The notes under the pieces were generated by a model that saw nothing but the letters and a program-made list of their open reading frames with translations, was not told where the DNA came from and did not search any database. A stretch of DNA of 64,000 nt from Isurus oxyrinchus (Eukaryota): positions 124,682,001-124,746,000 of the forward strand of contig JANJGN010000009.1 in NCBI GenBank assembly GCA_026770705.1, in the 5' to 3' direction. Positions within the stretch are counted from its first letter, which is position 1; each line of letters opens with the position of its first letter. A program made the position numbers and the translations under genes. Below are positions 1 to 43,036 of the stretch, piece by piece.

Positions 1-850
1 GATTCTGGAGCAGTCCAAGTCCAAATGCAGCAAGACCTAGACAATATTCAGGCTTGGGCTGACGTGGTAAATAACATTCGCACCTCACAAGTGCCAGGCA
101 ATGACCATCTCTTTCAAGAGAGAATTGAACCCTTTGCCCCTTGATATTCAATGGCATTACCATCACTGAATCCCCCACTATCAACATTTTAGCGGGGGTT
201 ACCATTGACCAGAAACTGAACTAGATGAGCCAAATAAATACTGTGGCTACAAGAGCAGGTCAGAGGCTAGGAATCATGTAAGTCACCTCCTGACTCCCCA
301 AAGCCTGTCCATTGTCTACAAGGCACAAGTCACGAGTGTAAAGGAAAACTCCCCACTTGCCTGGATGAGTGGAGCTCCCACAACACTCAAGAAGCTTGAC
401 AAGATCCAGGACAAAGCAGCCTGCTTGTTTGGCAACATATGCACAAACATTCACTCCTTCCACCACTGACGCAAAGTAGCAGCAATTTGTACCATCTACA
501 AAATGCACTGCAGGAACTCACTAAGGCTCCTTTGACAGCACCTTCCAAACCCATGACCACTACCATCTAGAAGGAGAAGGGCAGCAGACAGATGGGAACA
601 CCATCATCTGTAACTACCCCTCCAAGTCACTCACCATCCTGCCTTGAAATATATCACCGCTCCTTCACTGTTGCTGGGTCAAAATCCTGGAACTCCCTCC
701 CTAACAGCACTGTGGGTGTACCTAGTCCACATGGACTGCAGTGATTCAAGAAGGCAGCTCACCACCACCTTCTCAAGGGCAACTAGAGATGGGCAATAAA
801 TGCTGGTCCAGCCAGTGAAGCCCACATCCCGTGAACGAATAAAAAAAAAT
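1..850 (+). mobile_element. 3' fragment of a CR1/Zenon-like LINE (degenerate RT C-terminus and 3' tail)
   Basis: Remnant YKAQV..SPLAWMSGAPTTLKKLDKIQDKAA; 3' tail aagggcaactagagatgggcaataaatgctgg..cccacatcccgtgaacgaataaaaaaaaa. Same family as 12665-13185 and 32044-35302. Confidence 0.85.
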
Positions 851-10314: not shown

Positions 10315-10662
10315 GGGAATTGATGGCATAGTGGTATTGTCACTGGACTAATAATCTAGAGACCCAGGATAATGCTCTGGGGACCTGGGTTTGAATCCCA
10401 CCATGGCAATTGGTGGAATTTGAATTCAATAAAAGTCTGCAATTAAAAATCTAATAATGACCATAAAACCATTGCTGATTGTTGTAAAAATCCATCTGGT
10501 TCACTAATTCCCTTTAGGGAAGGAAATCTACTGTCCTTACCTGGTCTGGCCTACATGTTACTCCAAACCCACAGCAAAGTGGCTGACTCTTAAATGCCCT
10601 CTGAACTAGGGAAGTTAGGGATGGCCTAACCGGTGATGCCCACATCCCATGAATGAAAAAAA
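10315..10662 (+). mobile_element. tRNA-derived SINE matching the 5' head and 3' tail of the CR1/Zenon-like LINE
   Basis: A box tggcatagtgg and B box ggtttgaatcc; body matches the reverse complement of about 35010-35302; tail gcccacatcccatgaatgaaaaaaa matches the LINE 3' end (about 820-850 and 32044-32110). Confidence 0.85.
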
Positions 10663-11526: not shown

Positions 11527-13393
11527 TCACAACTTCTTAATTTTCCTCAGTCTACCACTTTGTCTAGGTGCGTTCCCAACATCCACAGTAGAGGTGGAGG
11601 CAGCCTACTGATGACCATGCCCTCTTGTCTGTGATGGCTTTGGCAGGCATCCTCTGGAGGTCTGAGGCCTGGAGGGCTTCAGCTTTCTTTGCATCTCCTG
11701 TTCAGGGGCAGGTCTACCTTCTGAGGGCTCAGAAGCTGGAGCTGATGGGGTCACAAGTAGAGGGGATTGGGAACACCTGGATACCCTTGGAATGTTCTGG
11801 GTGGATGCCCCCGAGGTATCCGCCTGATGCTCCTCCTCCCTTTGGGTGCCTGAAGTCCACAACAACACAGAATATGCGAACACACTCCTCCATCTCTCAT
11901 GCTGCTCTGTTGAGGGCCTCTGACAGCTCTGCCTGATGTTCACCTGCATCTCTTTGATGCTCCAGCATCTTTTCCATGACCACTTCCACAGGCTTGTCAT
12001 CTGACTCAGGTTTAGCAGGAGCCTCTTCTCCAGCAGTCCTCCGAGTGCCAGAGACCTTGGCTCTCACTGCCTCTGCCTGCTGCAGACACATGTCTGTAAG
12101 GTGACCATTAGAGTGTGAGCCTGAGCCTAAACTAGATATATGACCCACCGAGGTGTGTGTCTGTGGTCTGGTGGAAGGTGCTGGTGAACACTGTGATGGC
12201 TGTACAGGTGTGAAGTCTTCGTCATCTCCTTTCTCTGAGACGTTCTGGGGGCTGGGGCTTACTTTTGGGGCAGAGGCTGCCCTCCCCCTCTTCCTGCTGG
12301 CACCTAGAATGGAGAGAAGAGAGAATGAGTGACTGCCCAGGCTGGCTCAATATTGAAAACATCAATCACCTTGATTTTCCAAGATCCTTGGAATTATGCA
12401 TGCTTCCTCACTAGATGCTTGGGGAGGCCGACCTCGCCCTCAGCACAGGCACAATCACCATCCTCTCCACTAGCTCAGCAACCTGCTGCTCAAATTGAGT
12501 GAGTGGCTTGAGTTCAGGCATCCCATCTCCTGTCTTCTCTCTTTCTCCCTCCTGTTTTGGGCTACCTTCTCCTGCATAAAGATGGATTGTGAACACCTAC
12601 GATGAAAGAGCAAGTTGCAGGCTGCTAATTCTGTGGCTAATAACTGACTTCGTGACTTCCCAAAACCCGACCACCATGTGCAAGGCACAAGTGAGGAGTG
12701 CGATGGAATACTCTCCACTTGCCTGGATGAGTGCAGCTCCAAAAACACTGAAGAAGCTGGAAACCAATCAGGACAAAGCCCCCTGCTTGATTGACACCTC
12801 ATCCACCATCCTCAACATTCACTCTCTCCACTGCCGACAGTGGCAACAATGTGTATCATGGTCAAGATGCACTGCAGGAACTCACAAAGGCTCCTTCAAC
12901 AGCACCCTCCCCATGAGCTCTACCACCTAGAAGGACAAAGGCAACAGATGCATGGGAACAGCACCACCTGGAAATTGCCCTCTACTCCACATCCCATGGC
13001 TGTGCCTTCACTGTGGCTAGGTTAAAATCCTGTGGTTGCCTCTGTAATAGCACAGCACTTGGACTGCAGCAGTTCAATAAGGCAGCAGCCCACCACCTTC
13101 TCAAGGGCAATTAATGACAGGCCACAGAAATGCTGGCCTTGACAGCGACACCCACGCCCACATCCCAAGACAGAAACATAAAATGAATGTTGGGGGAGCA
13201 GAGTGTTCACTTATCCTAGCGGAGTGGATGAGATCATTCATCCATTTCCTACACTGCAGGGCGATCCTCCTCTGGAGCCCATGGGCACTGACCTCCTGGC
13301 AACCAACTCCCAGGCCACCGTGGTCAGTCAGGTGGGCCTCCTACTGCCATCGCTTGGGAACTGGACTTTTTCTACCTTTCGTTTCTTTGACAT
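11527..13393 (-). pseudogene. Harbinger Myb/SANT-like gene remnant (three exons; intron 1 carries a LINE fragment)
   Basis: MSKKRKVEKVQFP..RIALQCRKWMNDLIHSAR; exon 2 atgcag|EKVAQNRREKER..LKPLTQFEQQVAEL; exon 3 colinear with 6493-7463. Confidence 0.75.
12665..13185 (+). mobile_element. 3' fragment of the CR1/Zenon-like LINE
   Basis: KAQVRSAMEYSPLAWMSAAPKTLKKLETNQDKA..NIHSLHCRQ and the family 3' tail. Confidence 0.85.
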
Positions 13394-17250: not shown

Positions 17251-17619
17251 GAACAGGAAGCACTAATGTTGTATGATTAGTGCTTAGTCAAATCAGATAA
17301 GGAGGGCCTGATCCAACCAAGCCTGTACCCTGCAGTGAGTTGCAGTGAGGAGATGAGCAGAAGTTGAGTTAGGGGCTGATGAAGGACAGCGAATGAGGCA
17401 TTTCCTGGGAAAATGGAGAGGAAACGTAATTTCAATGTTGATTAGCAGTGGAAGCCTCTGGGTAATAATGATATAAAGGCGTTGCTGTCAATTTGAGTTC
17501 TGTAATTTAAGCTGTTGAGCCTGATCTGTGATATCCTGCCCCATAAGTGCTTTACTGTAAACTGGCAAAATGTGAGAAAGAGACTGATGAAAAGCTATTA
17601 CACTCATAGAGTGATTGTC

Positions 17620-18250: not shown

Positions 18251-18329
18251 AGATTTGCAGGGGGAGGGGAACAAGGGTGTTAGAGCAGATAGTGAGGTGG
18301 AGGAGGATGAAGGTCAACCGAGGAATGCA

Positions 18330-21155
18330 TGTATAAACAGAAATCAAGGGTCCGTACGTGATAGAAATGTTCTCAGGTGCATCTATTTCAATGCAAGGAG
18401 TATTGTCGAAAAGGCAGATGAGCTTAGGGCGTGGATTGGCACATGGGATTACGACATTATTGCTATTAGTGAGACTTAGTTGTAGGTGGGCCAGGATTGG
18501 CAGCTCAATGTTCCGGGGTTCCGTTGTTTCAGACGTGATAGAGGGGGAGGGATGAAAGGGGAGGAGTGGCATTACTAGTCAGGGAAAATATCACAGCTGT
18601 GCGTAAGCAGGACAGTCCGGAGGGCTCATCTACAGAGGCCATATGGGTGGAGCTGAGGAATGGGAAAGGTGTGACCACACTAATAGGGTTGTATTATAGA
18701 CCGCCCAATAGTCAAAGAGAATCAGAGGAGCAAATCTGTAGAGAAAGCAGACTGATGTAAGAAACAGAAAGTTGTGATAGTAGAAGATTTTAACTTTCCA
18801 CATATTGACTGGGATTCCCATACTGTAAAAGGGCTGGATGGCTTGGAGTTTGTCAAATGTGTTCAGGAAAGTTTTCTAAATCAATATATAGAGGTACCAA
18901 TGAGAGAGAATGCAATATTTGATCTCCTATGAAGGAACCAGACAGGTCAGGTGACAGAAGTATGTGTGGGCGAACATTTTGGGTCCAGTGACCACAATGT
19001 CATTAGTTTTAAGCTAATTATGGATAAGGATAGGTCTGGTCCTCGAGTTAAGATTCTAAATTGGAGAAAGGCAAATTTTGTGGAAATGAGAAAGGATCTA
19101 GGAAGAGTGGATTGGCATAAGTTGTTTTCTGGTAAGGATGTGTTCAGTAAGTGGAAGGCATTCAAAGGCGAAATTTTGAGAGTGCAGAGTTTGCATGTTC
19201 CTGTCAGGATTAAAGGCAAAGTTAACAGGCATAGAGAACCTTGGTTTTCAAGGGATATTGGCGATCTGGTTAAGAAGAGAGAGGTGTATAGCAGGTATAG
19301 GCAACAAGAAGCAAAAGAGGTACTTGTAGAGTATAGAAAATGTAAGAAAATACTAAAAAAGGAAATCAGGAAGGCAAAAAGAAGACATGAGGTTGCTTTG
19401 GCAGATAATGTGAAGGTAAACCCGAAGGGTTTCTACAAGTATATTAGGAGTAAAAGGATAGTAAGGGACACAATTGGTCCCCTTGAAGAGCAGAGTGGTC
19501 GTCTATGTGTGGAGCCTCACGAGATGGGGGAGATCTTAAACAGTTTTTTTGCATCAGTATTTACTCAGGAAACTGGCATAGTATATAAGGAAGGAAGGGA
19601 AACAAGCAGTAGTTTCATGGAGCATATAGAGATTAAAGAGGAGGAGGTGCTTGCTGCCTGACAGCGAATAAAGGTAGATAAATCCCCCGGGCCTGACATG
19701 ATATTCCCTCGGACCTTGAGAGAGATTAGTGTAGAAATTGCAGGGGCCCTGGCAGAAATATTTACAATGTCCATAGCCATGGGTGAGGTGCCGGAGAATT
19801 GGAGGGTAGCTCATGTTGTTCTGTTGTGTAAAAAAGGCTCCAAAAGTAAACCAGGTAATTATATGCCAGTGAACCTGACGTCAGTAGTAGGTAAATTATT
19901 GGAAGGTGTTCTGAGAGATCGGATATATAATTATTTGGACAGCCAAGGATTAAAGTCAGCATGGCTTTGTGCATGGTAGGTCGTGTTTAACAAACTTGTA
20001 GAGTTTTTCGAAAAGGTTACTAAGAAAGTAAATGAAGGAAAGGCTGTGGATGTTGTCTGCATGGACTTTAGTAAGGCCTTTGACAAGGTCCCACATGGGA
20101 GGTTAGTTCAGAAGGTTCAGACACTTGGTATCCATGGAGAGGTTGTAAACTGGATTTGAAATTGGCTGTGTGGGAGAAGACAGAGAGTGGTAGTGGATGA
20201 CTGCTTAGCAGACTGGAGATCTGTGACTAGTGGTGTGCCTCAGGGATCTGTGCTGGGACCATTGTTGTTTGTTGTCTATATCAATGATTTGGATGATAAT
20301 GTGGTGAATTGGATCAGCAAGTTTGCTGATGACACAAAGATTGAAGGTGTTGAGGACAGCGAGGAAGGCTTTCAAAGCCTGCAGAGAGATCTGGACCAAC
20401 TGGAAAAATGGGCCAGAAAATGGCAGATGGAAGTTAATGCCAAAAAATGTGAGGTGTTCCATTTTGGAAGGTCAAACCAAGGTAGAACGTACACAGTAAA
20501 TGGTAGGGCACTGAGGAGTGCGGAGGAACAAAGGGATCTGGGAGTTCAGATACATAGTTCCCTGAAAGTGGCAGCACAGGTAGCCAAGGTTGTAAAGAAA
20601 GCTTTTGGCATACTGGCCTTCATAAATCAAAGTATTGAGTATAGGAGTTGGGATGTTATGGTGAGGTTGTATAAGACATTGGTGAGGCCAACTTTGGAGT
20701 ATTTTGTGCAGTTCTGGTCGCCTAACTACAGGAAGCATATCAGTAAGATTGAGAGAGTGCAGAGAAAATTTACTAGGATGTTGCCAGGTCTTAAGGAATT
20801 GAGTTACAGGGAAAGATTAAACAGATTAGGACTTTATTCCTTGGAGCGTAGAAGAATGAGGGGAGATATGATAGAAGTTTACAAAATTATAGACAGAGTA
20901 AATGTGAGTAGGCTGTTTCCACTTAGATTAGGAGAAATAAACACGAGAGGACATGGCTTTAGGGTAAAAGGGGAAAGGTTTAGGGGGAACATTAGGGGGA
21001 ACTTCTTCACTCAGAGAGTGGTGAGAATGTGGAACAAGCTACCTTCTGACGTGGTAAATGTGGGCTCACTCTTAAGTTTTAAGAATAAATTAGATAGATA
21101 CATGGATGGCAGAGGTCTGGAGGGTTATGGACTAGGTGCAGGTCAATGGGACTAG
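18330..21155 (+). pseudogene. CR1 ORF2 (APE endonuclease and reverse transcriptase), with stops and frameshifts
   Basis: RCIYFNARSI..IIAISET, GLYYRPP, SSDHN, GVPQGSVLGPLLF, KFADDTK, RLGLYSLERRRMRGD. Confidence 0.92.
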
Positions 21156-21292
21156 AGGAATAATATTTCGGCACAGACTAGAAGGGCCGAATGGCCTGTT
21201 TTCTGTGCTGTAGTGTTCTATGGTTCTATGGTCAGCGTCACTGCTTTTCTCTAAAAATGAACCAGTCACCAGTTCTAATCATATTGATACCT

Positions 21293-21530
21293 TTTAAAAA
21301 ATTCTTTCATGCGACATGACCATTGCTGGCTAGGACAGCATTTTTAACGCCCATCCCTAGTTGCCCTTGAGAAGGTGGTGGTGATCTGCCTTCTTGAGCC
21401 GCTGCAGTCCACGTGGTGTAGGTACACGCACAGAGCTGTTTGGAAGGGAATTTCAGGATTTTGACCCAGCGACAGTGAAGGAACAGTGGTATATTTCCAA
21501 GTCAGGGTGGTGAGTGACTTGGAAGGACCT
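21293..21530 (-). mobile_element. Short 3' fragment of the CR1/Zenon-like LINE
   Basis: gcccatccctagttgcccttgagaaggtggtgg..; colinear with 32044-32280. Confidence 0.8.
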
Positions 21531-22419: not shown

Positions 22420-23925
22420 ATCTCTTTTTATTTTTTTCTTTCCTCATCCAGTCTCTTCCCAGTTACATCTGTGACTCTTCTGTCACACTCCATCACTTTC
22501 AGAGTTTCCAGTTTCCTGACCCTAACTGTCTCCTCTTCAGCATGGACCATCCAATCTCCATCCTCCATCAGGATGGTCTAAGGGCTCTGTGTTTCTTCCT
22601 GGAACAGAGGCCCATTCAGTCCGCATCCATCACCACCCTCCTCTGCTTGCAGGGCTGAACTTGTTCTCACCCTGAAAACTCCTCCTTTAACTCCACTCAT
22701 TTCCTTCAAATAATGAGTTGTTATGGGTCCCTGCAAGGTTCCGAGCTTTGCCTGCCTTTTTATGGGATATGTAGAATATTCCCTGTTTCAAGCCCTATCG
22801 CTCTCTTTTTCCAGTATATTGATGACTATATTGGTGCCGTTCCCTCCCGCAATGTGAACTGGAAAACTTCATCAACTTTCCTTTCAATTTTCGCCCTTCT
22901 CTCCCTTTCACATGGTCCATCTCTGACTCTTCTCTACCTTTCCTTCACTTCTCTATTTGCATTTCTAGGGATAGGCTAACAGCTAACATTCACTATTAGC
23001 CCACTGACTTCCACAGCTACCTGAGCTACATTTCCTCAATTTTCTGTATCTGCTCCATATCATTCTCCCAGTTTGTCTGTTCTGATGGTGCAATCTTCCA
23101 TTCTAACACTTCTGATAAGACTTCCTTTCTCCTCAACCAAAGATTTCCCCCACTGTGGTTGACAGGGGTCTCAACTGTTTCCATCCCATTTCACATACTT
23201 CTGCTCTCACCCCGACCCCTCCCTCCCAGAACTATAATGGTGTTCTCCTTGCCCTCACCATCCACCCTCAAGCCTCCAAGTTCGACGGGTCATCCTCCGA
23301 CATTACTACCACCTCCAGCGTGATGCCACCACCGAATGCACCTTCCACTTTCTGCATTTCAAAATGACCATGACCCACTGGTCCACCCTTCAATCATCCC
23401 CAACAGCCTTTACTATCCCGATACCACCTTTCCATGCAAGCTCAGGAGATGCAACACTTTCCCTTTTTACCTCCTCCTATCTCACCATCCAAGGACCCAC
23501 ACATTCCTTCTGCCATTTTGTTTCCTTTATCTTTGCACGTTTGGTTTTACTCTCTTGTTCTTTTTTTCTTTTTCTTTTTTGCTTTTGGGCTGCAGCTGTT
23601 CAGAATTCTGCCATTCACACCTCCTCTCGGCTCATCTTTTGTTTCTTTTCTTGTCCCATTACCACTCCCTGCACCTCCAACACTCCTAACAATTAATCTC
23701 CGCTGTCTTCCACCCTATCGCAGACTTTCCCTTTCGCTCTTCTTCCCACCCTTCCCCACCCCCCCCCTTTCACTTTCTTAACACCGGTTACATCTCTAAC
23801 TTTTCCCAGTTCTGATGAGAAGTCATCAGCCTGCAACTTTAACCCTGTTTCTCTCTCCACAAACGTTGCCAGATCTGCTGAACTTTCTGTTTTTATTTCA
23901 GATTTCCAGCACTCTGCTTTGTGTC
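22420..23925 (+). mobile_element. Old, deleted Penelope-like element (RT remnant and pLTR)
   Basis: FFQYIDDYIGA, HQDGLRAL.FFLEQRP and FPCKLRRCNTFP remnants colinear with 25950-27110; decayed hammerhead agttctgatgagaagtcatcagcctgcaac at about 23808-23845. Confidence 0.85.
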
Positions 23926-24025
23926 ATCTCCTCCACTGCCCCAGTTGAGATTGGCTAAACAAAAACAAAAACAGAATTACCTGGAAAAACTCAGCAGGTC
24001 TGGCAGCATCGGCGGAGAAGAAAAG

Positions 24026-24064
24026 AGTTGACGTTTCGAGTCCTCATGACCCTTCGACAGAACT
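24026..24064 (-). ncRNA. Minimal type I hammerhead ribozyme variant (inverted pLTR)
   Basis: Reverse complement agtt-ctgtcga-a-gggtc-atgag-gactc-gaaa-c-gtc-aact. Confidence 0.65.
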
Positions 24065-24501
24065 TGAGTTCAAGTCCAAGAAAGAGTTGAAATATAAGTT
24101 GGTTTAAGGCGTGTGTGTGGGGGGCGGAGAGAGAGAGAGAGAGAGAGGTGGGGGGGTTGTGGTTATAGGGACAAACAAATTATTATATAAAGATTTTCCT
24201 ATTCCCACCTATTTCCATTATTTTAAATAAAAAAAACCCCACTAGAGCTATACCTTGAGTGCCCTACCATCCATTCTTAATTAGCACATTCGTTTAGATA
24301 ATATCACCAACTTTAACTTTAACACCTATGTGTTCTTTTGTACCATTGTCGCTGACATCTTTTGATGATCTGCTTCTATCACGGCTTGTTTGTCCCTACA
24401 ACCACACACCACCCCCCCACCTCTCTCTCTCTCTCCGCCCCCCCCCCCCACACACACCTTAAACCAGCTTATATTTCAACTCTTTCTTGGACTCGAACTC
24501 A

Positions 24502-24540
24502 AGTTCTGTTGAAGGGTCATGAGGACTCGAAACGTCAACT
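24502..24540 (+). ncRNA. Minimal type I hammerhead ribozyme variant (5' pLTR)
   Basis: Stem I agtt/aact, core ctgttga, stem II gggtc/gactc, GAAA, palindromic ACGT in place of stem III, GUC triplet. Confidence 0.7.
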
Positions 24541-24679
24541 CTTTTCTTCTCTGCCGATGCTGCCAGACCTGCTGAGTTTTTCCAGGTAATTCTGTTTTTG
24601 TTTTTGTTTTGGATTTCCAGCATCCGCAGTTTTTTGTTTTTATCTCTGTGTTTGACTGACTGCCACTGCTCTTCAAGAA

Positions 24680-27437
24680 ATGCCTACCTCCTTGAAGAAG
24701 TTCTGTTCTTTTCTGCGACAAGATTTCCGTTCCTCTCTTTTGCCCTGCTCACCTTCCTTGCTTTCCATTTCCCTCCTGGTGTTTGACAAGGTGTTTACTA
24801 AAACCCGCTTTCACAGCCATATCTCCTTTCTCAGTGACTGTCACCGTCTCCGAATTACCCCACGTGGATTTCAACTGAAATTCCACCCCTCATGTTTCGA
24901 ACCCACCCAGGATTACAGGTATCTCCGGGACATAAAACGTTTCTCGTACTGCTGTTCCCGTCACATTCTGAAATCCACACTCAGTGCCATGCGCCGCCAT
25001 ATGAACACACTCGACTTCTCCCTCCAGCAGCACCGCCGTACTCTTTTTCAAAGCTGCGCGTGCCCCCAGTTTCATTTTATCCTTCGGCTCATCCGACGCC
25101 TCAACAAGAAACTTTTCCTCTTTCTCTCAAGTGCTAAGGAACGCAAGCTCCAACAACTCATCGACACCAACACTCATCTAGGACCCTCCACCCCTGCCTG
25201 TCCCGCCGTCCCCACCCTTTCTTCCAATCCCAACCCCAGCCGTGTATTCACTATACCCCCTGACCTTCCCCTCTCTGATGCTGAACGTTCAGTGCTCAGC
25301 AAAGGACTTAGTTTCATACCCTTACGCCCTCACCTCAATGAATTTCGGGCACGGCATGATGCTGAACTCTTCTTCCACCGTCTTCGTCTCCGGGCTCACT
25401 TCTTTGGGCAGGAGTCCTCTCCCAGTTCAACGGATCCTTTTACCCATCTCCAATATTCTCCCTCCACCTGGACCCCTCCCTCTGGATTCTTACCTTCTCT
25501 TGATCTTTTCATTGAGAACTGTCGGCGCGACATTAGTCGTCTCAATTTCTCTGCTCCTCTCACCCATTCTAACCTGTCTCTCTCTGAACTTACTGCACTC
25601 CATTCTCTCAGGTCCAACCCTGACATTGTCATCAAACCCGCTGACAAGGGTGGTGCTGTTGTTGTCTGGCGCACTGACCTCTACCTCGCGGAGGCTGAGC
25701 GTCAACTCGCAGACACTTCCTCCTACCTCTCCCTGGACCATGACCCCACCACTGAACATCAAGCCATTGTTTCCAGGACTGTCACTGACCTCATCTCCTC
25801 TGGGGATCTCCCTCCCACAGCTTCCAACCTGATAGTCGCCCAACCTCGGACGGCCCGTTTCTATCTCCTACCCAAAATCCACAAACAGAACTGCCCCGGT
25901 AGACCGATCGTCTCAGCTTGCTCCTGCCCCACAGAACTCATTTCTCGTTATCTTGACTCCCTTCTCTCTCCCCTTGTCCAGTCCCTTCCCACCTACATCC
26001 GTGATTCCTCTGACACTTTACGTCACATCAACAATTTCCAGTTCCCTGGCCCCAACCGCTTCCTCTTCGCCATGGACGTCCAATCCCTCTACACCTCCAT
26101 CCCCCACCAGGATGGTCTGAGGGCCCTTAGCTTCTTCCTCGAACAGAGGCCCGAACAATCCCCATCCACCACTACTCTCCTCCGTCTGGCTGAACTTGTT
26201 CTCACGCTGAACAATTTCTCCTTCAACTCCTCTCACTTCATCCAAATAAAAGGTGTGGCTATGGGTACCCGCATGGGTCCCAGCTATGCCTGTCTCTTTA
26301 TGGGGTATGTGGAACATTCCTTGTTCCAGTCCTACTCCAGCCCCCTTCCACAACTCTTTCTCCGGTACATCGATGATTACTTCGGTGCCGCTTCATGCTC
26401 TCGTCGGGACTTGGAAAAATGTATTAATTTTGCTTCCAATCTCCACCCCTCCATCATTTTCACGTGGTCCATCTCTGACACTTCCCTTCAACTTCCTTGA
26501 CCTCTCTGTCTCAATCTCTGGTGATAGACTGTCCACCAATATCCATTACAAATCCACTGACTCCCACAGCTATCTCGACTACAGCTCCTCACACCCCGAT
26601 TCCTGTAAGGACTCCATCCCATTCTCTCAGTTCCTTCGCCTCCGTCGCATCTGTTCCGATGATGCTACCTTCAAAAACAGTTCCTCTGACATGTCCTCCT
26701 TCTTCCTTAACCGAGGTTTTCCACCCACGGTCGTTGACAGGGCCCTCAACCGTGTCCGGCCCATCTCCCGCGCATCCGCCCTCACACCTTCTCCTCCTTC
26801 CCAGAAACATGATAGGGTCCCCCTTGTCCTCACTTATCACCCCACCAGCCTCCGCATTCAAAGGATCATCCTCCGCCATTTCCGCCAACTCCAGCATGAT
26901 GCCACCACCAAACACATCTTCCCTTCACCCCCCCTATCAGCATTCCGTAGGAATCGCTCCCTCCGGGACACCCTGGTCCACTCCTCCATCACCCCCTACT
27001 CCTCAACCCCCTCCTATGGCACCACCCCATGCCCACGCAAAAGATGCAACACCTGCCCCTTCACTTCCTCTCTCCTCACGGTCCATGGACCCAAACACTC
27101 CTTTCAAGTGAAGCAGCATTTCACTTGCACTTCCCCCAACTTAGTCTACTGCATTCGTTGCTCCCAATGTGGTCTCCTCTACATTGGTGAGACCAAACAT
27201 AAACTGGGCGACCGCTTTGCAGAACACCTGCGGTCTGTCCGCAAGAATGACCCAAACCTCCCTGTCGCTTGCCGTTTTAACACTCCACACTGCTCTCTTG
27301 CCCACATGTCTGTCCTTGGCTTGCTGCATTGTTCCAGTGAAGCCCAACGCAAACTGGAGGAACAACACCTCATCTTCCGACTAGGCACTTTACAGCCTTC
27401 CGGACTGAATATTGAATTCAACAACTTTAGGTCGTGA
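24680..27437 (+). CDS. Penelope-like RT and GIY-YIG endonuclease; single +1 frameshift near 26490
   Basis: IKPADKGGAVV, FYLLPKIHK..PGRPIVS, MDVQSLYTSIP, GVAMGTRMGPSYA, RYIDD, FLDL, Cys linker PCPRKRCNTC, VYCIRCSQCGLLYIGET..RFAEH..GLN. ORFs 24680-26500 and 26253-27437 join at ..TSL(P)FLDL. Confidence 0.93.
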
Positions 27438-27812
27438 GCTCCCTCCCCCATCCCCACCCCCTTTCTGTTTCCCCCTTCCTTTTTTTTCCAATAAATTATA
27501 AAGATTTTCCTTTTCCCACCTATTTCCATTATATAAAAAAAAACACCCCCACTAGAGCTATACCTTGAGTGCCCTACCATCCATTCTTAATTAGCACATT
27601 CGTTTAGATAATATCACCAACTTTAACTTTAACACCTATGTGTTCTTTTGTACCATTGTTGCTGACATCTTTTGATGATCTGCTTCTATCACTGCTTGTT
27701 TGTCCACACAACCACACACCCCCCTCCACCTCTCTCTCTCTCTCTCTCTCTGCCCCCAGCACACACACCTTAAACCAGCTTATATTTCAACTCTTTCTTG
27801 GACTTGAACTCA

Positions 27813-27851
27813 AGTTCTGTCGAAGGGTCATGAGGACTCGAAACGTCAACC
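27813..27851 (+). ncRNA. Minimal type I hammerhead ribozyme variant (3' pLTR)
   Basis: agtt-ctgtcga-a-gggtc-atgag-gactc-gaaa-c-gtc-aac. Confidence 0.7.
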
Positions 27852-29714
27852 CTTTTCTTCTCCGCCAATGCTGCCAGACCTGCTGAGTTTTTCCAGGTAA
27901 TTCTGTTTTTGTTTTTGTTTTGGATTTCCAGCATCCGCAGTTTTTTTGTTTTTATCTCTGTGAGATTGGCTACCTCTGTTCAATGGAACAGTTGACTCTG
28001 GGACTTCTGATTCTTTAAGGTTGGGCAGTGTAGTTGTCAACTAAAACATTAGCAGTAATGGGGTCTTAAAATATAGAATTGGTGTCTGATACACAACTCA
28101 ATGCAGCCTTCTGCTTTGTCATGAGGACTTTGCTCTTCGCACCCAAAGCAAGAGGACAAACTGGAGAAACAAGTCGCTAGAAAGCATTTTGTTAGAAAAA
28201 ATTGTACTGGGACAAGATCAACAGGAAGAAGTGAAGGGCAAAAAAAACCCACAGTGAGAACACTGCTTTGCTCCAGCTTCCCCAACAACGAGCAAAGCAG
28301 TGCATTGAATCAGGTGCAGTGAGGCAATAAGGATCAGATAAGACTAAATCGGAAATTCAAGCTGTTGCCTCCAGACCAGTCACTCCGATGTCAAGTATAT
28401 GGAGTCCCGGAGCTGCCTGTCAATGCAGCTCATGTTCACTGGTTGGCTGGGTCTTGTCAGGTCTCCAGCAAGTGATGGGGGGAGAAGCAAGCGAAGGATG
28501 CTGTCAGAACCAGACTCATCTCACTTGTATTATAATTCTGTCAACTTGCTGAAGATCTTTGATCTTGGTGCTGAAATCTCAAGCCAAAAGCATTCAATCC
28601 TGCTAGCTGTATGGGCTATTCATTGGAGGTGGTGGGGGGGCGGGGGGAGAGCAAAAATGGGAAACCATTGAATTTGGCTACAAATCCTTATTCGTAACAC
28701 TAACCAACTTCTCAATTTGTGCTAAATATATTTCTGGAAATGCACACAATTAAAACATTAATTCACAGGCAGGAGGAGCACGTGGGGCTGGGGATTAAAT
28801 CTGGCAAAAATGTGAATGGATGAGGAAACCGATTCCAAACCACTATATCACTCCAGTGCGTTCAGGTGTGTGTGAGCAACCCCGAGGAAAGGCTTCTGTT
28901 CAATTGACTTATGTTAATCAGTCAGTTAGAACCTGCTGCAAGGATGCACCTCGCCTCTCTCCTGTGGAATTGCAGACCTGATACTGCTGTTGGTCACATT
29001 GATCCACATCTAAGGTCCAATCAGTGTCCGTGGCACTCATGAATCGATTGACTGATGCTCCAAAGTGGAAATCAGAACTCCAATATGAACTTGAGATGCC
29101 CAACATGTGTCAAGTAACCTTGTAGCGTAAATACTGTTAACAAGGCTTTTCATGCGAGCAGGTAACAAAGCAGCAATGAATGCTGTCCATGTATTGGCAT
29201 TTCTTTCCTGCTGTGGCCTCAGTCCCTCAATTCACACCATGTTCTCACCAGCGAGTTCCAGGAAACCTGTGAACCCACAGTTAATGTACAAAATCCATGT
29301 CTCATGTACTTGTTGGCCATCGCCTGTGAAATTCTGCAAATGTCTGGGAAAAAGCCCTGGAAGAATCAGAGGCAAAGAAATGAGGGTTGTGGTGACTTTG
29401 ACAGACATTGTGATCCCCAGGTCAACATGGCAGCAGCTCTTGTTCCAGAGGCTGCAAATGTCTCCACCACCTAGGAGGCCAGATCACAAATTTAAAAAAA
29501 TATCCTGCACACAGGCAGAGGATAAGTTTCCTTGACATGTCAGAGCACCAGTGACTCAGGATGCTCAGAGTGTCATGTCATGTCACACCTCCTTGACCAA
29601 TCGGGTAGGAAGGGTAGGATGATGTCGCCATTTTGTCAGAGGGAGGATTTCTAATTAAAGGGACCATGCTATGTTTCAGAGAAGATCACCAGGACAGTTT
29701 TACGCTGCCGGAAT

Positions 29715-32043: not shown

Positions 32044-35000
32044 TTTTTTATTCATCCACGGGATATGGACTTCGCTGGCCAGGCCAGCATTTATTGCCCA
32101 TCCCTAGTTGCCCTTGAGAAGGTGGTGGTGAGCTGCCTTCTTAAACCACTGCAGTCCATGTGGTGTAGGTACACCCACAGTGCTGTTAGTAAGGGAGTTC
32201 CAGGATTGTGATTCAGTGACAGTGACGGAACGGTGATATATTTCCAAGTCAAGATGGTGAGTGACTTGAAGAGGAATTTCCAGGTGGTGGCGTTCCCATT
32301 TATCTGCTGCCCTTGTCTTCTAGGTGGTAGTGGTCGTGGATGTGGAAGGTGCTGTCTAAGGAGCTTTGGTGAATTCCTGCAGTGCATCTTGTAGATGGTA
32401 CACACTGCTGCTATTGTGCGTTGGTGGTGGAGGGAGTGAATGTTTGTGGATGTGATGCCTGTCCACCAGACTGCTTTGTCCTGGACAGTGTCCAGTTTCT
32501 TCAGTGTTGTAGGAGCTGCATTCATCCAGGCAAGTGGGGAGTATTCCATCATGTTCCTGACTTGTGCCTTGTAGATGGTGGACAGGCTTTGGGGAGTCAT
32601 GAGGCGAGTTACTCGTCACAGGAATCCTAGCCTCTGACCAGCTCTTGTAGCCACGGTGTTGATATGACTAGTCCAGTTCAGTTTCTGGTCAATGGTAACC
32701 CCCAGGATGTTGATAGTGGGGGATTCAGTGATGGTAATGCCATTGAACATCAAGGGTCAACATTCCCTTGTTGGAAATGGTCAATGCCTGACACTTGTGT
32801 GGTGTGAATGTTACTTGCTACTTGTCAGCCCAAGCCTGGATATTGTCCAGGTCTTGCTGAATTTGGACATGGACTGCTTTGGTATCTGAGAAGTTGCGAA
32901 TGGTGCTGAACATTGTGCAATCATCAGTGAACATCCCCGCTTCTGACCTTATGATGGAAGGAAGGTCATTGATAAAGCAGCTGAAGATGGTTGGGCCTAG
33001 GACACTACCCTGAGGAACTCCTGCAGTGATGTCCTGGAGCTGAGGTGACTGACCTCCAACAACCATAACCATCTTCCTTTGCGCTAGGTATGACTCCAAC
33101 CAATGGAGAGTTTTCCCACTGATTCCCATTGACTCGAGTTTTGCTAGGGCTCCTTGATGCCACACTTGGTCAAATGCTGCCTTAATGTCAAGGGCAGTCA
33201 CTCTTACCTCACCTTGGGAGTTCGGCTCTTTTGTCCATGTTTGAACCAAGGCTGTAACAAGGTCAGGAGTTGAGTGGCCCTGGCGGAACCCAAACTGGGC
33301 ATCAGTGAGCAGGCTAAGCAAGTGCCATTTGATAGCACTGTTGATGACCCCTTCCATTACTCTACTGATTATGGAGAGTAGGCTGATGGGATGGTAATTG
33401 GCCGGGTTGGATTTGTCCTGCTTTTTGTGTACAGGACATACCTAGGAAATTTTCCACATAGCCGAGTAGATGCCAGTGTTGTAGCTGTACTGGAACAGCT
33501 TGGCTAGGGATGTGGCAAGTTCTGAAGGACAAGTCTTCAGTACTATTACCAGAATGTTGTCAGGCCCCATGGTCTTTGCAGTATCCAGTGCCATCAGCTT
33601 TATCTTGATATCATGTGGAGTGAATCGAATTGGCTGAAGACTGGCATCTGTGAGGCTGGGGACCTCCGGAGGATGCCGAGATGGATCATCCACTCGGCAT
33701 TTCTGGCTGAAGATTGTTGCGAATGCTTCAATCTTATCTTTTGGACTGATGTACTGGGTCCCCCTATCATTGAGGATGGGGATATTAGTGGAGCCACCTC
33801 CTCCAGTGGTTGTTTAATTGTCCACACCATTCACGACTGGATAGGGCAGGACTGCAGAGCTTAGATCTGATCCGATGGTAGTGGGACTGCTTAGCTCTAT
33901 CACTTGTTGCTTATGATGTTTGGCACACAAGTAGTCCTGTTTTATAGCTTCACCAGGTTGACACCTCATTTTTAGGTATGCCTGGTGTTGCCCCTGGCAT
34001 GCCCTCCTGCATTCTTCATTGAACCAGAGTTGATCCCCTGGCTTGATGGTAATGGTGGATTGGGGGATATGCCGGTCCATGAGGTTACAGATTGTGTTGG
34101 AGTACAGTTCTGCTGCTGCTGTTGTCCCACAGTGCCTCATGAATGGCTAGTCTTGAGTTGCTGGATCTGTTCAAAATCCATCCCATTTAGCACGATGGTA
34201 GTGCCACACAACATGATGGAGGGTATCCTCAATGTGAAGGCGGGACTTCATCTCCATAATGACCGTGTGGTGGTCACTCCTACCGATACTGTCATGGATA
34301 GATGCATCTGCAGCAGGCAGGTTGGTGAGGATGAGGTCAAGTATGTTTTTCCCTCTTGTTGGTTCCCTCACCACCTGCTGCAGACCCAGTCTAACAGCTC
34401 TGTCATTTAGGACTCAGCCATCTCAGTCAGCAGTGGTGCTACTGAGTCACTCTTGGTGATGGACATTGAAGCCCCCACCCAGAGTACATTCTGTGCCCAT
34501 TCCACCCTCAGTGCTTCCTCCAAGTGGTGTTCAACATGGAGGAGCACTGATTCATCAGCTGAGGGAGGGTGGTACTTGGTAATCAGCAGGAGGTTTCCTT
34601 GCCCATGTTTGACCTGATGCCACAAGACTTCATGGGGTCCAAAGCCGATGTTGAGGATTCCCCAGGCAACTCCCCACTGACTGTGACTGTGCCACCACTT
34701 CTGCTGGGTCTGTCCTGCCAGTGGGACAGGACATACCCTGGGATGGTGATGGCGGTGTCTGGGACATTACCTGTAAGGTATGATTCCATGAGGATAACTA
34801 TATCAGACTGTTGCTTGACTAGTCTGTGAGGCAGCTGTCCCAATTTTGGCACTAGCCCCCAGATGTTAGTAAGAAGGACTTTGCAGGATCGACAGGGTTG
34901 TGATTGCCATTGTTGTTTCCAGTGCCTAGGTCGATGCCGGGTGATCTGTCCGGTTTCATTCCTTTTTTGTGACTTTGTAGCGGTTTTTTACAACTGAGTG

Positions 35001-35302
35001 ACTTGCTAGGCCATTTCAAAGGGCATACAAGAGTCAACCACATTGCTGAGAGTCTGGAGTCACATGTCGGACAGACGAGGTCAGGTAATGACAGATTTCC
35101 TTCCCTAAATGACATTAGTGAACCAGATGGGTTTTTACAACAATTGACAATGGTTTCATGATCATCATTGAACTTTTAATTCCTGATTTTTATTGAATTC
35201 AAATTCCACCATCTGCCATGGTGGGATTCAAACCCAAGTTCCCAGAGCATTACCCTGGGTCTCTGGATTACTAGTCCACTACCACTACGCCATAGTCTCC
35301 CC
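32044..35302 (-). mobile_element. Apparently full-length (about 3.26 kb), ORF1-less CR1/Zenon-like LINE with a tRNA-derived 5' head; ORF decayed
   Basis: 5' ggggagacta-tggcgtagtgg (A box)..ggtttgaatcc (B box); EN motifs NIWGLVPKLG..DIVILMESYL, PTRGKNILDLIL, SDH; RT motifs QFGFR, ALDIKAAFD, GVPQGSVLGP, FTDD; family 3' tail. Confidence 0.88.
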
Positions 35303-35940
35303 TTTACACCCACTTGCCACATGGCTGAGGTTTAGTGCAAGTTGTATATATTTGTATGCATTAAGTCTCTTTCACATGAAAAGTAAATGACACAAATGCC
35401 GTAAATTCCAGCCTATTGTTTACTGAAACTATTTCCTAAGGGGTTGGCGTTATTTGGATAAACCATGCGTTAGATAATAGAATGCTAGTAGCCAAAGGGT
35501 TAAACTAACTGGAGAATGCTGCTAAGGTTTGGACTGCTTGTCTATTCCAATGGCTGTAGGAGTTCTATCTCAAACTAGTCCCTAGTCAGCATGGGTCTGC
35601 AGCCCTAAACTAGCCAGATTAGTACCTTCAATCAGACACCACAGGATAGCTGCTATAGCAAATGGAAATGATGCCAGCAGACTTTGCCTTTCAAAGTCAG
35701 GCCTGAGACACGTCATTAGTGCAGAGTAAAGGTTGTACGATCTTTGAATTGGGAGTAGTAGTTGCTGGGTGTGTGAAATTAAAAGAATTCCATCTTCGTG
35801 ATGAGCTGATAAAGAAACCCCCCAAAAAGATGAATGTCTAAAGAAAAAATCGTTCAGCAAGATTTATTTGTAAAATGTTTTCAATGAAGATCTTTTTGAA
35901 GAGTCAATGGATAATCACAGAACTTGATGTGGTACTCAGC

Positions 35941-36262
35941 AATACAGACCGGGAATGGCCGAGGTTCCATACAGACCGGGAATGGCCGTGGTTCCATACA
36001 GACCGGGAATGGCTGTGGTTACACATGGACTGGGAATGGTCATGATTCCATACGGACTGGGAATGGCCCTGGTTCCATACAGATTGGGAATGGCCTGGTT
36101 CCTCACAGACCGGGAATGGCCCTGGTTCCATACAGATCGGGAATGGCCCTGGTTCCATACAGATCGGGAATGGCCGTGGTACTATACGGACCGGGAATGG
36201 CCCTGGTTCCACGTGGGCCGGGAATAGCCCTGGTTCCACGTGGGCTGGGAATGGCCCTGGTT
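35941..36262. repeat. 27-bp minisatellite (cgggaatggccctggttccatacagat), about 12 units
   Basis: Directly visible tandem units; 9-aa periodicity in the ORF track. Confidence 0.95.
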
Positions 36263-37008
36263 CTGTCTCCACATTTTGTAGTGTTGACTGAATTTTGTCA
36301 GGGGGCAGTGAGGTTCCACTCTTGGCCACAATGTTGCTGGAGTAGAGAGATGAAGAAAATAGCTTGGATTCCTGTTCCTGATTATTATCCAAGGAATTTT
36401 GCTGGAATGATATGACTGTGAACGCAAGGACAAGAAAGGTGCAGTTGTGACACCCTTTACACATATTAACCAGGCTCAAACACTAATATTGATGGGCTGG
36501 TAAAGAACCAATAGTGGCCTTGAGCATGAGCTGCAATCTTCAGTGTGAGGGGTGTCTGCCGGTATCAATGGTTAACGTATACATTGTGCATCTTAGCCAA
36601 CATTCCCAGTTATCTCTGTTTCAAGTAATTAAAGCTTGGAAATTGTTGCTGTTGGGGTGATTGACTAACATATAGGAAAAGCCTTGTGTTACCATCCATT
36701 ATCCAAGGTAGCAAGGCTGGGTTTGAACAGAAAATGGGCTCTTCTGATTTGGGCTTTAGCAACTTTTTTTGAAAATTGTATCATCAATTTAGTTGAACAA
36801 ATTGCCTCATTATCCAAATATTGGAAGGGTGGACAAGACACAAATTTTAATTATCTTTTGAGGCAGATCTAGTGGCTCACAATTGCAAATAAATTGCTGT
36901 GTAAACAAGGATCTCGGTGTTTGCTAAGAACCAAGTTTACTTACAAGGTAGGAAATATAAGGGATGTGCTCTTTAAAATAGCAGGCCTGTTATTCACTGT
37001 ATGTCATG

Positions 37009-37302
37009 TCAGCAAGATTTATTTGTAAAATGTTTTCTATGAAGATCTTTTTGAAGAGTCAATGGATAATCACAGAACTTGATGTGGTACTCAGCAATAC
37101 AGACCGGGAATGGCCATGGTTACACATGGACTGGGAATGGTCATGATTCCATATGGACCGGGAATGGCCCTGGTTGCATACAGATTGGGAATGGCCCTGG
37201 TTCCTCATGAACCAGGAATGGCCCTGGTTCCATACAGATCGGGAATGGCCCTGGTTCCACGTGGGCTGGGAATGGCCCTGGTTCCACGTGGGTTGGGAAT
37301 GG
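37009..37302. repeat. Duplicate of 35854-36262, with a shorter array (about 7-8 units) of the 27-bp minisatellite
   Basis: tcagcaagatttatttgtaaaatgtttt..gatgtggtactcagcaatacagaccgggaatggcc is almost identical at both sites. Confidence 0.93.
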
Positions 37303-38120
37303 CAGACATTTGCAAAGGGAATTTGTTGGATTGAATGATTTGGCAAAACTGTTGTGGGTAAAAGCTTAATGTGGAGAAGCGAGAAGTTATCCCCCTCGGA
37401 CCAAAGATAGATCACAGTACTTTCTAAATGGTGAGAAGCAAAGGAACTATGGAGGAGTAGGTGGATATACCAGTCCAAGTACAGAAATCACTATAAACTA
37501 CGAAATATAATTCAAAGGGATAACATAAAGTGGGCTTTTATCTCAAAGGCACTAAAATACAAAGAGATGGAAGTTATGTTATATAAAGATCTAGTTAGAT
37601 CCTACTTCATGTACCAATTTCAGTTCTGGGCACCATGCCTCAGGAAGGATGGATGGAGTTGGATGGAGGTCTTGGATGGAGTTCAGTGGCAATTCACCAG
37701 AATGAACTGTGGTTAATAGGATTAAACTTTGAGGGAAGTTTGCACAAACTAGGCTTATATTCCCTTGTGTATAGAAGATTAAGGGTGATTTAATCGTTGT
37801 TTAAGTTGATTAAAGGAATTGATAGTTTCTCTCTGTCTACCCTATTTTCTCTGGTAGAGGAATGCAGATCAAGGGACCATAGCCTTAAAATTAAAGAGAG
37901 TGAGGTTTTAGGGGTGATGGCAGAAATCACTCTTCACACAGAGGGAACTCTGTCCCCAAAAAGCTATTGAAGTTGGGTCAATTGAAGATTTCAAAACTGA
38001 GATTAATAGATTGTTGTTAGGCAAGGATTACAGAGCCAAGAGAAGTAGATGGACTTAAGAGACAGTTCAGCCATGACTGAATTGACTATCGGAACAGACT
38101 TGAAGGGCTGAATGGCCATC
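37303..38120 (+). mobile_element. Degenerate CR1 3' fragment
   Basis: YKDLVRSYFMYQFQFWAPCLRKD..QWQFTRM remnants and a gaagggctgaatggcc 3' end. Confidence 0.7.
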
Positions 38121-39261: not shown

Positions 39262-40396
39262 TTGATTAGGAACTGCACCTGAACCGGATCGGGAATCACA
39301 AACGAAATCTGAACCTGATCAGGAATTGTACCCAAAATCTGAACCGGATCAGGAATTGCACCCAAAATCTGAATCGGATCAGAAATCCACCCAAAATCTG
39401 AACCGGATCAGGAATCGCACCCAAAATCTGAACCCGATCAGGAATCGCACCCAAAATCTGAACCCGATCAGGAATCACACCCGAAATCTGAACCTGATCA
39501 GGAATTGCACCTGAAATCTGAACCGGATCAGGAATCACACCCAAAATCTGAGTCTGATCAGGAATTTCACCTGAAATCCGAATCTTATTGGGAATCACAC
39601 CCGAAATCTGAACCAGATCAGAAATCGCACCCAAAATCTAAACTGGATCAGGAATCACACCTGAAATCTGAATCTGATCAGGAATCGCACCAAAATCTGA
39701 ACCTGACCGGGAATTGAACTCGAAATCTGAACCTGATCAGGAATTGAACTCGAAATCTGAACCTGGTCATGAATCGAACCCAAAATATGAACTAGATCAG
39801 GAACTGAACATGAAAGCTGAACCGGATCAGGAATTGCACCGAAATCTGAACCTGATCAGGAACTGAACTCAAAATCTGAACCTGATCATGAATCGAAGCC
39901 AAAATATGAAGTAGATCAGGAACTGAACATGAAAGCTGAACCGGATCAGGAATTGCACCGAAATCTGAACCTGATCGGGAATCACACCCAAAATCTGAAC
40001 CGGATCAGGAATTGCACCCAAAATCTGAATCGGATCAGGAGTCGCACCCAAAATCTGAATCGGATCAGGAGTCGCACCCAAAATCTGAATCGGATCAGGA
40101 ACGGCACCCGAAAACTGAACCAAATCAGGAATTGAACCTGAACCCTGAACCTGATCAGGAATCGATTCCAAAATATGAACCTGAAGAGGAATCGCACCTA
40201 AAATCTGAACCAGATCGTGAATTGAACCCAAAATCTGAACTGGATCAGGAATTGCACCTGAACCCTGAACCAGATCAGGGATTGCACCTGAAATCTGAAC
40301 CTGATCAGGAATTGAACCCAAAATCTGAAACGGATCAGGAATCGCACCTGAAATCTGAACCAAATCGTGAATCGAGCCTGAAATCTGAACCTGATC
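39262..40396. repeat. 30-bp tandem repeat (gatcaggaatcgcacccaaaatctgaaccg), about 38 units
   Basis: Directly visible; 10-aa periodic ORFs (ESHPKSEPDQ / GAIPDPVQIL). Confidence 0.97.
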
Positions 40397-41859: not shown

Positions 41860-43036
41860 ATGGGGATTGTGGTCTCTGCTGGAGGCACCTCCTCTGAGGA
41901 GGAAGAGAGGGGCAGGTGTTCCTATGCAGCTTCCAGGGGAGTGACTTGTGGGAGGAGAGGCGCAGGGACAAGGGCTCAAGGCCAGCAGGTAGTCCAAAGT
42001 GGAAGAGGCTGCAGTAGATGCCACCAACCTGCTGCCAGGGTTTATAGGCAGCGGTGCAGCTACCTCAACATGTCTGAGATGCAATGCCGAAGGAGGATCC
42101 GCCTCTCCAGGGAGACTGTGACCTCCATCTGTCAGATGATTGGGTCAGTGGCTCTAAAGGTCACAGTGGCCCTCAACTTCTATGCCTCTGGCTCTTTCCA
42201 GGGGTCAGTGGGGATCTGTGTGGAGTCTCCCAATCAGTTGTCCACAGTTGTATCAAGCTGGTGACAGAAGCTCTGTTCAGGTGGGTAATGACATTTATTC
42301 ATTTCTATACAGAAGAGGCCAGCCAAGCAGAGTGAGCCAGAGGGTTTACAGTGATTGCTGGGTTCCCCCACATCCAGGGTGCAGTCAACTGCAAACATGT
42401 GGCCATCAAGGCGCCAGCGGGTCAGCCACGTGCCTTCATCAACAGGAAGGGATTCCACTTGATGAACGTCCAGATAGTTTGTGACCACAAGACGCAGATT
42501 CTGCAAGTTTGTGCAAGGTACCCTGGCAACTCCCATGATGCTTATATCCCCCCCAGGCACTCCCAGGTGCCAAGGCTATTCAGTGCTCCAGCCCAACTGG
42601 ATGGATGGCTGCTGGGTGACAAAGGCTATCTTTTGAAAATGTGGCTTATGACATCTTTCCACCACCCAAGAACAGAGGCAGAGCAGCGTTATAATAGGAG
42701 TTATGCCTCCACAAGGGTGGTGATAGAGAGGACCATAGGTCTGAAGATGCGCTTCCGATGCCTGGACCATTCAGGGGAAGCACCACAATATCCCCAGAGT
42801 GGGTGCCACTGATAGTGGTTGCATGCTACGCTTTCCACAATCTGGCATTGGCAAGGGGAGACCCACTGGAGGAAGAGGACCTTGAGGCAGCTCCACAGGC
42901 CACAGAGGATGAATCCAGTAGTGAGTCAGAAGAGAAGCACAGTGAGGAGAATGCTGAAGGCATAGAGGCAGACCTCTGTATACTTCAGAGAGGCAGGGAC
43001 ACCAAGAACACCTTGGTTCAACGCTCTTTCAGCTAG
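41860..43036 (+). pseudogene. Harbinger (HARBI1-like) DDE transposase, frameshifted
   Basis: [89 protein letters not shown]. Confidence 0.92.

Follow-up and report, generated by a model that had tools for sequence, protein, structure and literature searches.

The LINE at 32044-35302 on the reverse strand of the window (the whole stretch of 64,000 nucleotides analysed here, from Isurus oxyrinchus) is, judging by its sequence, a member of the elasmobranch Zenon family, the same as CarCar_Zenon-1 and its kin. At the level of this family our comparisons show that the 5' end of the LINE is, as a fixed feature, a tRNA-derived, putative internal Pol III promoter. The best explanation, to which we give a probability of roughly 0.68, is that these LINEs form an autonomous family, over whose full length Pol III would transcribe an uncapped RNA that is then translated with no in-frame AUG. 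It is generally accepted that LINEs are transcribed by Pol II and that what Pol III makes is short and non-coding (PMC10886601); a headed LINE whose 3.2-kb ORF is free of terminators, kept across sharks and a ray, would, if our reading is true, break both rules and provide a natural Pol III mRNA. It would open questions on the range of Pol III, on translation without cap or in-frame AUG, and on the origin of the conserved bodies of SINEs, the body being possibly, in the present case, the working part of the LINE 5' end. What is new is the promoter on the LINE; the absence of ORF1 and the internal-deletion derivatives of Zenon were already known. Among the papers listed by our literature searches, none states a LINE with a tRNA-type promoter as here; Repbase and Dfam may already note the head.

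The head-to-endonuclease junction

The anatomy of the head-bearing LINE is nearly certain (Table 1). At 34882, some 420 nt into the LINE, lies the start of the endonuclease (tblastn with residues 12-81 of P0010, 39% identity; the Pfam endonuclease domain begins at residue 17 of P0010), and the reverse transcriptase (RT) follows. No ORF1-sized frame was found ahead of the endonuclease in this element, and the sequence-only reading, which had the endonuclease directly after the head region, was right on this point. The copy itself is dead: it has some five frameshifts, and its 6 frame segments contain 8 stops. No target-site duplication is evident by eye. It nevertheless displays what defines a Zenon, i.e. 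a single ORF joining an APE endonuclease and an RT, no ORF1, and a poly-A tail, short here (32049-32044) and present also in the second copy of the window. In a quick RT tree holding no labelled Zenon reference, the LINE stands apart from the CR1 of the window and falls in a 44-row clade of short-leader EN-RT proteins (SH-aLRT 96).

Table 1. Position of the LINE, of its parts and of the related copies in the window.
Feature	Position	Strand	Remarks
Elasmobranch Zenon (CR1-group) LINE, full-length decayed copy	32044..35302	-	5' 400 nt ~90% identical to CarCar_Zenon-1 by eye
tRNA-like head with long variable-arm hairpin	35205..35302	-	5' end 10 nt ahead of A box; fold z -2.27
A box	35282..35292	-	
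B box	35224..35234	-	one C-to-T change vs three consensus rows
Conserved body, common to LINE and SINE	35015..35204	-	contains a stem with a loop that is complementary over 7 bp to that of the hairpin behind the B box
Candidate start element (hypothesis)	34979..35013	-	4-bp stem and 7-nt anticodon-like loop (34999-35013), A-rich spacer, GCT (34981-34979)
35-codon ORF from an AUG out of the endonuclease frame	34852..34959	-	overlaps the endonuclease start
Apurinic-type endonuclease domain, frameshifted here	34270..34882	-	in-frame, Arg-rich, AUG-less stretch ahead
Reverse transcriptase domain	32833..33423	-	Pfam RVT_1 E 1.1e-31
3' tail, comprising the final codons of ORF2, its stop (32093-32091), a stem-loop and a short A tail	32044..32116	-	part shared with the SINE
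SINE, LINE head and body joined to LINE tail	10315..10662	+	
Second LINE copy, 3' part, cut by the window edge	1..846	+	84% over 848 nt
Older 5'-truncated 3' fragment, same or sister family	12631..13160	+	71% over 561 nt
Short 3' fragment of the family	21301..21521	-	84% over 221 nt

Seven consensus sequences of elasmobranch Zenon LINEs, of 2,886-3,314 nt, have been given for five species, namely white shark, whale shark, catshark, spiny dogfish and stingray (Stuart et al. 2026, PMC13343379). They compare well with our LINE: a length of ~3.25 kb, a single EN-RT ORF, no ORF1, an A tail and a near-identical 5' 400 nt. The same paper states that ORF1 is missing from all Zenon and that they terminate in poly-A, so that the missing ORF1, ordinary for Zenon, cannot be taken as a novelty. 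On the other hand, the main text of PMC13343379 leaves the head, the terminator depletion, the missing AUG and the matching SINE unremarked, and holds 0 occurrences of “tRNA” or “polymerase III”; the head is thus already in print as sequence, but unremarked in this main text.

Head, body and linker open all seven elasmobranch Zenon rows (by eye, on the first 400 nt of each), and are shared by none of the three rows from hagfish (2) and coelacanth (1), read by eye over the same 400 nt. The endonuclease start is visible within these 400 nt in two of the elasmobranch rows. Six variants of the B-box motif match 6 rows of ~1,003, all of them elasmobranch Zenon; in the stingray row the B box is degenerate. 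The A box is canonical in 7/7 elasmobranch rows, in which 5-10 nt separate it from the 5' end of the consensus (by eye). Such a distance ahead of the A box is the spacing expected of a tRNA-type promoter. The conserved internal boxes at start distance that characterise a Pol III unit are thus carried by the LINE as a whole.

The junction was also reached through proteins. An HMMER protein search, whose query was the off-frame ORF lying across the junction, returned 7 proteins: P0002, an independent record, tracks the window through the body, the body end and the linker into the endonuclease start, and P0007 spans the linker to the endonuclease. Word-indexed protein searches with the junction ORF and with the endonuclease start gave no match, and an exact 25-nt scan of GTDB contigs for stray shark DNA gave 0 matches. 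A junction unique to this locus would have pointed to the chance insertion of a SINE next to a truncated LINE, and consensus sequences extended automatically and by hand, as those of PMC13343379, might conceivably have fused abundant SINEs to LINE ends. However the same junction is present in the raw window, in P0002 and in the five independently built species sets (7/7 elasmobranch rows), and at this point no SINE tail is seen. As the junction recurs, such an artefact is refuted, with hardly any probability left to it.

The boxes of the head lie where the sequence-only reading had put them. In the whole window a loose A box-B box pattern finds two sites only, the LINE head and the SINE head (10324), for 0.08 expected per shuffled window. 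The tRNA fold is weak in these decayed copies: ARAGORN calls the LINE and SINE heads at the 90% threshold only, among 10 calls (0-3 in shuffled windows), and when relaxed draws the anticodon, variable and T arms of the SINE head. This SINE head retrieves tRNA-Sec from Rfam with 15 bits and an E of 1.1, and for the LINE head Rfam gives no tRNA match. Searched by blastn against the best 80 of at least 549 related LINE loci, the 5' 420 nt gave no match, and among these 80 loci a strict A/B pattern occurs in L064 only, far from its ORF; this absence of A/B heads is a weak negative, because many of the loci are cut close to the ORF.

The elasmobranch Zenon families comprise 59-2,313 copies each, with 0-3 intact ORF2 copies per family in six rows, one cell of the table being garbled (PMC13343379); the almost complete absence of intact ORF2 makes the present activity of Zenon doubtful. 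Together with the lack of an in-frame AUG, the near absence of intact ORF2 among thousands of copies might also be the mark of a passenger: the head-bearing 3.2-kb element would then be a Pol III-transcribed, non-autonomous giant SINE, its tail being a whole LINE, mobilised in trans by a conventional, head-less Zenon. We hold this for very improbable, the head being present in all 7 elasmobranch Zenon families reported in PMC13343379, where a head-less partner is not listed. In addition, the synonymous bias at the endonuclease start (by eye, see below) and the maintenance of a full-length ORF in sharks and ray point to translation.

Terminator motifs on the sense strand

A LINE transcribed by Pol III should be depleted of TTTT terminators on its sense strand, as the sequence-only reading had foreseen. 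With T4 and TVTTT as terminators, the shortest vertebrate ones reported in PMC8466645, the sense strand contains 1 motif in 3,253 nt for 10.3 expected, and 0/400 shuffles were as low; the antisense strand contains 23. Two other elements of the window, its CR1 and a Penelope-like element, contain 28 in 3,615 nt and 19 in 2,782 nt respectively. This full-length copy thus shows, in its sense strand, the lack of terminators of a Pol III unit. Within the ORF the 1 motif compares with 5.3 when synonymous codons are permuted (P 0.007).

As controls we used the best 80 of at least 549 confirmed related LINE loci in GTDB contigs, most likely host contamination; these belong to other hosts, and most of their ORFs have a higher T content, with a T match in only 3/78. 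With respect to these 80, the observed/expected ratio of terminators is 0.19 in the LINE ORF and 0.65 in the lowest control, and their density 0.31/kb against 1.75/kb in the lowest control. The depletion extends to shorter runs: TTT runs number 8, where permuting synonymous codons gives 15.8 (P 0.0015), the CR1 control having 40 versus 43, and both TTT runs and TT dinucleotides are lowest in the LINE when compared with the 78 control loci of at least 1,200 nt, drawn from the same best 80 of at least 549.

T4 runs taken alone are less telling. The sense strand has a single one, where base shuffles give 5.9 (P 0.014) and dinucleotide shuffles 2.4 (P 0.28); the window's CR1 has 17, and L001 and L070, two of the control loci, also have 1 in the matched ORF, so that T4 alone fails to single out the LINE. 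Three motif definitions were tried, T4, T3, and T4 with TVTTT, and the test rests on one full-length copy. The sole T4 of this copy precedes a G and could thus stem from CpG decay. The depletion that was predicted is found in the decayed full-length copy (1 vs 10.3), and not in the second, partial copy (1-840), which has 3 terminators for 2.5 expected; the T runs of the latter fall where the two copies differ.

Since the sense strand is purged of T4 and TVTTT, Pol III may well run through the whole LINE. It would start ~5-10 nt ahead of the A box, transcribe the full 3.2-3.3 kb and stop at the first T4 or TVTTT signal met in the flanking DNA. The proposal of an autonomous LINE with a SINE-type Pol III promoter, made from the window alone, is strengthened by the family-wide junction and by the depletion of terminators, from which we infer the transcription by Pol III.

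The main alternative, which we consider unlikely, is that the head is a captured SINE fragment on an RNA made by Pol II, from which ORF2 is reached by scanning, by re-initiation or by a frameshift of -1 after initiation at the 34959 AUG. The head might then act as a Pol II promoter or lie under one, or a tRNA-processing enzyme might excise it from Pol II read-through transcripts. This would agree with the view that LINEs are Pol II transcripts and with the poor processivity of Pol III (PMC10886601); besides, a relative, L001, is also T4-poor within its ORF. Yet L001 has 7 terminator-like motifs overall, including T5 and T6 in its 3' UTR. Transcription by Pol II also leaves unexplained the strand-specific loss of T4 and TVTTT, which affects neither the CR1 nor the Penelope-like element of the same host, as well as the position of the element's 5' end, which in 5 species lies at the distance of a Pol III start.

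A Pol III promoter is also known from retroelements that are not SINEs, the TRIMp3 elements Cassandra, Helenus and Ajax. These, however, are non-coding LTR derivatives of 311-1,263 bp, whose autonomous partners are expected to need Pol II (PMC10886601).

Proposed translation without in-frame AUG

No AUG opens the endonuclease frame of the LINE: those at 35026 and 35014 are followed by a stop within 6 and 2 codons respectively, and the next, at 34789, is already inside the endonuclease domain. In the first 400 nt of the HypSab consensus, no in-frame AUG is visible ahead of the endonuclease either. A conserved AUG (34959) lies one base out of the endonuclease frame, with the same offset in P0002 and in HypSab_Zenon-1 (stingray). 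With a purine at -3, it occurs in 6/7 Zenon rows (by eye), and in SquAca_Zenon-2 a deletion brings it into the endonuclease frame; both facts would suit a Pol II transcript read from this AUG. Against such a reading, no conserved slippery heptamer of canonical type was seen by eye on the way from this AUG to the endonuclease. We considered a read-through of the AUG-GCC-stop at 35014 as start of ORF2, and discarded it because both this copy and Squalus have another stop behind the first, and RhiTyp has a different phase. A 2A-like motif was not seen by eye in the linker.

Upstream of the domain, the in-frame Arg-rich stretch resembles the short leaders of the closest relatives, but those start with Met. 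Compared with SquAca_Zenon-3, the endonuclease start shows 5 synonymous differences and 1 amino-acid difference in 15 codons (by eye), the pattern of a sequence under coding constraint. As the RNA would have neither a normal cap nor an in-frame AUG, the single EN-RT protein would be produced by cap-independent, non-AUG initiation, possibly directed by the conserved structured body.

Uncapped LINE RNAs with IRES-like translation have been proposed for R2 and L1Tc, whose HDV-like ribozymes, by contrast, create the 5' end by self-cleavage (PMC3383444). Searched against Rfam, the LINE 5' region matched no ribozyme family, a decayed copy being one that could be missed. Another system that starts without AUG is the intergenic IRES of dicistroviruses (type 6, ~165-190 nt), in which an anticodon-loop:codon mimic places GCU or ACU first (PMC10275262). 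In the LINE, the likeness is limited to the 3' (PKI) domain, by eye: the body ends with a 4-bp stem and a 7-nt anticodon-like loop, whose central triplet is complementary to the in-frame GCT at 34981. GCTA is found within the variable A-rich spacer in 7/7 Zenon rows (by eye). The GCT is in the endonuclease frame in the window copy and in 4/7 rows; it is out of phase, as printed, in 2 Squalus rows, and 1 row is undecidable. In the whale shark row the difference amounts to 1 nt ahead of the GCT and 3 nt past it.

The anticodon-like hairpin is not part of the minimum-energy fold of the window copy, and the duplex between its loop and GCT reaches only -2.7 kcal/mol. The complement between the loop of the hairpin behind the B box and the body loop has 7 bp and -8.2 kcal/mol, a value for which no null was computed, and one pair of the body varies as A-U, G-U and G-C across species (by eye). 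This complement and this series of pairs suggest a real structure in the 5' region. The fold of the 5' 433 nt, taken as a whole, is no better than shuffles (z -0.25), and minimum-energy folding does not single out the body (z -0.36). From 34800 to 35500 no IRES family of Rfam was found at E up to 10, and the PKII/PKIII and the L1.1, SLIV and SLV motifs of type 6 IRESs were not seen by eye. We do not class the LINE 5' region with the type 6 (IGR) IRESs.

A start of viral type, by codon:anticodon mimicry, thus appears as a weaker lead. That the autonomous LINE makes a 3.2-kb Pol III coding RNA whose start would be factor-independent and tRNA-mimicking, like that of the dicistrovirus intergenic IRES, seems to us rather doubtful, with about one chance in five or slightly better. 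If it were true, the SINE body would be the ribosome-binding RNA of the LINE, and the copy that we call SINE would have been cut immediately ahead of the codon mimic.

The SINE, its origin and the related systems

The SINE of the window (10315-10662) aligns through 10306-10605 with the first 290 nt of the LINE over 305 columns, of which 247 are identical, and its tail scores 53 with the LINE tail, the best of 1000 shuffles reaching 32; it keeps the last 60-70 nt of the LINE. The description of this SINE as LINE head, body and tail is thus borne out by the alignments, except that the point of the join may shift by a few bases. With A and B boxes at its 5' end, a non-coding sequence of ~350 nt (SINE2 elements having 100-700 nt) and a tail common to its partner LINE, it is a probable SINE2 (tRNA-derived SINE). 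We did not assign it to HE1, SacSINE1 or CmiSINE, compared through their published descriptions, which give other partners. Another SINE form seems to exist: P0001 and P0004 read, as inferred from the peptides, as a SINE with a body ~20 nt longer before the same tail, and one of the two forms may derive from the other.

Most simply, the SINE would be an internal deletion of the LINE that kept promoter and recognition signal and dropped the ORF. We consider this origin as the simplest because the LINE contains no internal SINE tail and because Zenon of Lepidoptera repeatedly yields such derivatives. The reverse order, in which an older SINE gave the LINE its head (and body) by template switching or recombination, is the less likely of the two. 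It has for it that the exchange of SINE modules and the addition of heads to bipartite LINEs are documented (PMC5786205), and that, the P0001/P0004 form having a longer body, one SINE form may derive from the other. But a jump onto the 3' end of a SINE RNA would leave a SINE tail inside the LINE, where none is seen, and repeated deletion from Zenon is what is known in Lepidoptera (PMC6740152). Both orders, deletion and capture, may even have occurred in turn.

These precedents temper two premises of the sequence-only reading, in which a LINE of this group without ORF1, and a SINE sharing more than the tail of its partner, were both out of the norm. Such premises were overstated: all Zenon lack ORF1 (PMC13343379), and derivatives sharing both ends of a LINE are known (PMC5786205, PMC6740152). 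In the Persaeus SIDE of the lepidopteran Zenon, an internal deletion at microhomologies has united the two ends, 5' and 3', of a Zenon with a single ORF, as could be the case here; however Persaeus has neither tRNA homology nor Pol III promoter (PMC6740152), when here the LINE and its derivative both bear one. The bipartite SINEs of RTE and Vingi LINEs (Bov-tA, AfroSINE, SINE2-1_EC) share with ours a tRNA head, a LINE-derived middle and a LINE tail, but there the head is on the non-autonomous form only and the LINE is of Pol II type (PMC5786205), in contrast to the present LINE, which bears the head itself. [quoted passage not shown]

The tail shared by LINE and SINE fits the last step of the proposed cycle. 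The EN-RT protein would bind the 3' stem-loop and copy the RNA by target-primed reverse transcription, as is established for CR1-group LINEs. In the flank of the LINE, a few bases past the A tail, there is a TCTTT; it fits a termination in the flanking DNA and may be due to chance.

An early AATAAA and the CR1 of the same host

By eye, an AATAAA stands in the Zenon LINE at window 35200-35190, some 105 nt from the element's 5' end. Inspected in the same manner, most rows of the published elasmobranch Zenon consensus sequences display an AATAAA at about the same place. Such an early motif would be awkward in a Pol II transcript, though as evidence this is weak. As a same-host control for the Zenon LINE we took the canonical CR1 of the window (see the table); its start, judged by eye, apparently lies within ORF1, so that no 5' UTR is visible.

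Related LINEs filed in GTDB assemblies

Eukaryote-type LINE proteins are encoded in at least 549 stretches of bacterial and archaeal GTDB assemblies, pointing to host contamination of symbiont genomes. Two loci among the best 80 of these are detailed here. L001, whose contig is filed under a Clostridia assembly, encodes a protein identical to the record P0041; it has an AUG in frame and an A tail, and its 5' sequence is only 39 nt. The LINE of L070 is 29% T, yet its ORF contains one T4 run versus 8.5 expected; TVTTT motifs do occur, and the terminator-like motifs amount to 11 in all. With the 5' end lost, L070 might conceivably represent a second LINE of Pol III type.

Other repeats of the window

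The two transposase fragments are probably of PIF/Harbinger type, and the stretch at 4062-4327 is related to the palindrome. The Penelope-like element has direct repeats on either side (465 nt, 94% alike) and is accompanied by an inverted partial repeat at 23957-24178. Six of the ten relaxed ARAGORN calls in the window fall on the 30-bp satellite, probably owing to a minus-strand word that resembles a B box. The 27-bp arrays lie about 640 nt outside the 5' end of the Zenon LINE (35302).

Features of the window and of two related LINE loci
Feature	Location	Strand	Remarks
DDE_Tnp_4 transposase fragment	window 8267-8647	-	E 6.5e-15; in GC-rich block
DDE_Tnp_4 transposase fragment	window 42336-42809	+	E 5.5e-24; in GC-rich block
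Imperfect palindrome	window 48071-48208		138 nt, MITE-like
CR1	window 17617-21231	+	ORF1 fragment esterase-type (Lipase_GDSL_2, E 5e-6)
Penelope-like element	window 24186-27962		RT and weak GIY-YIG match
Fragments related to Penelope-like element	window 22447-23509 and 16178-17208		
30-bp satellite	window 39279-40396		37 copies
Two arrays	window 35942-36263 and 37102-37303		one common 27-bp unit
LINE	L070 3001-5060		5'-truncated, 5' end missing; A tail
LINE	L001 1-3008		intact single-ORF relative
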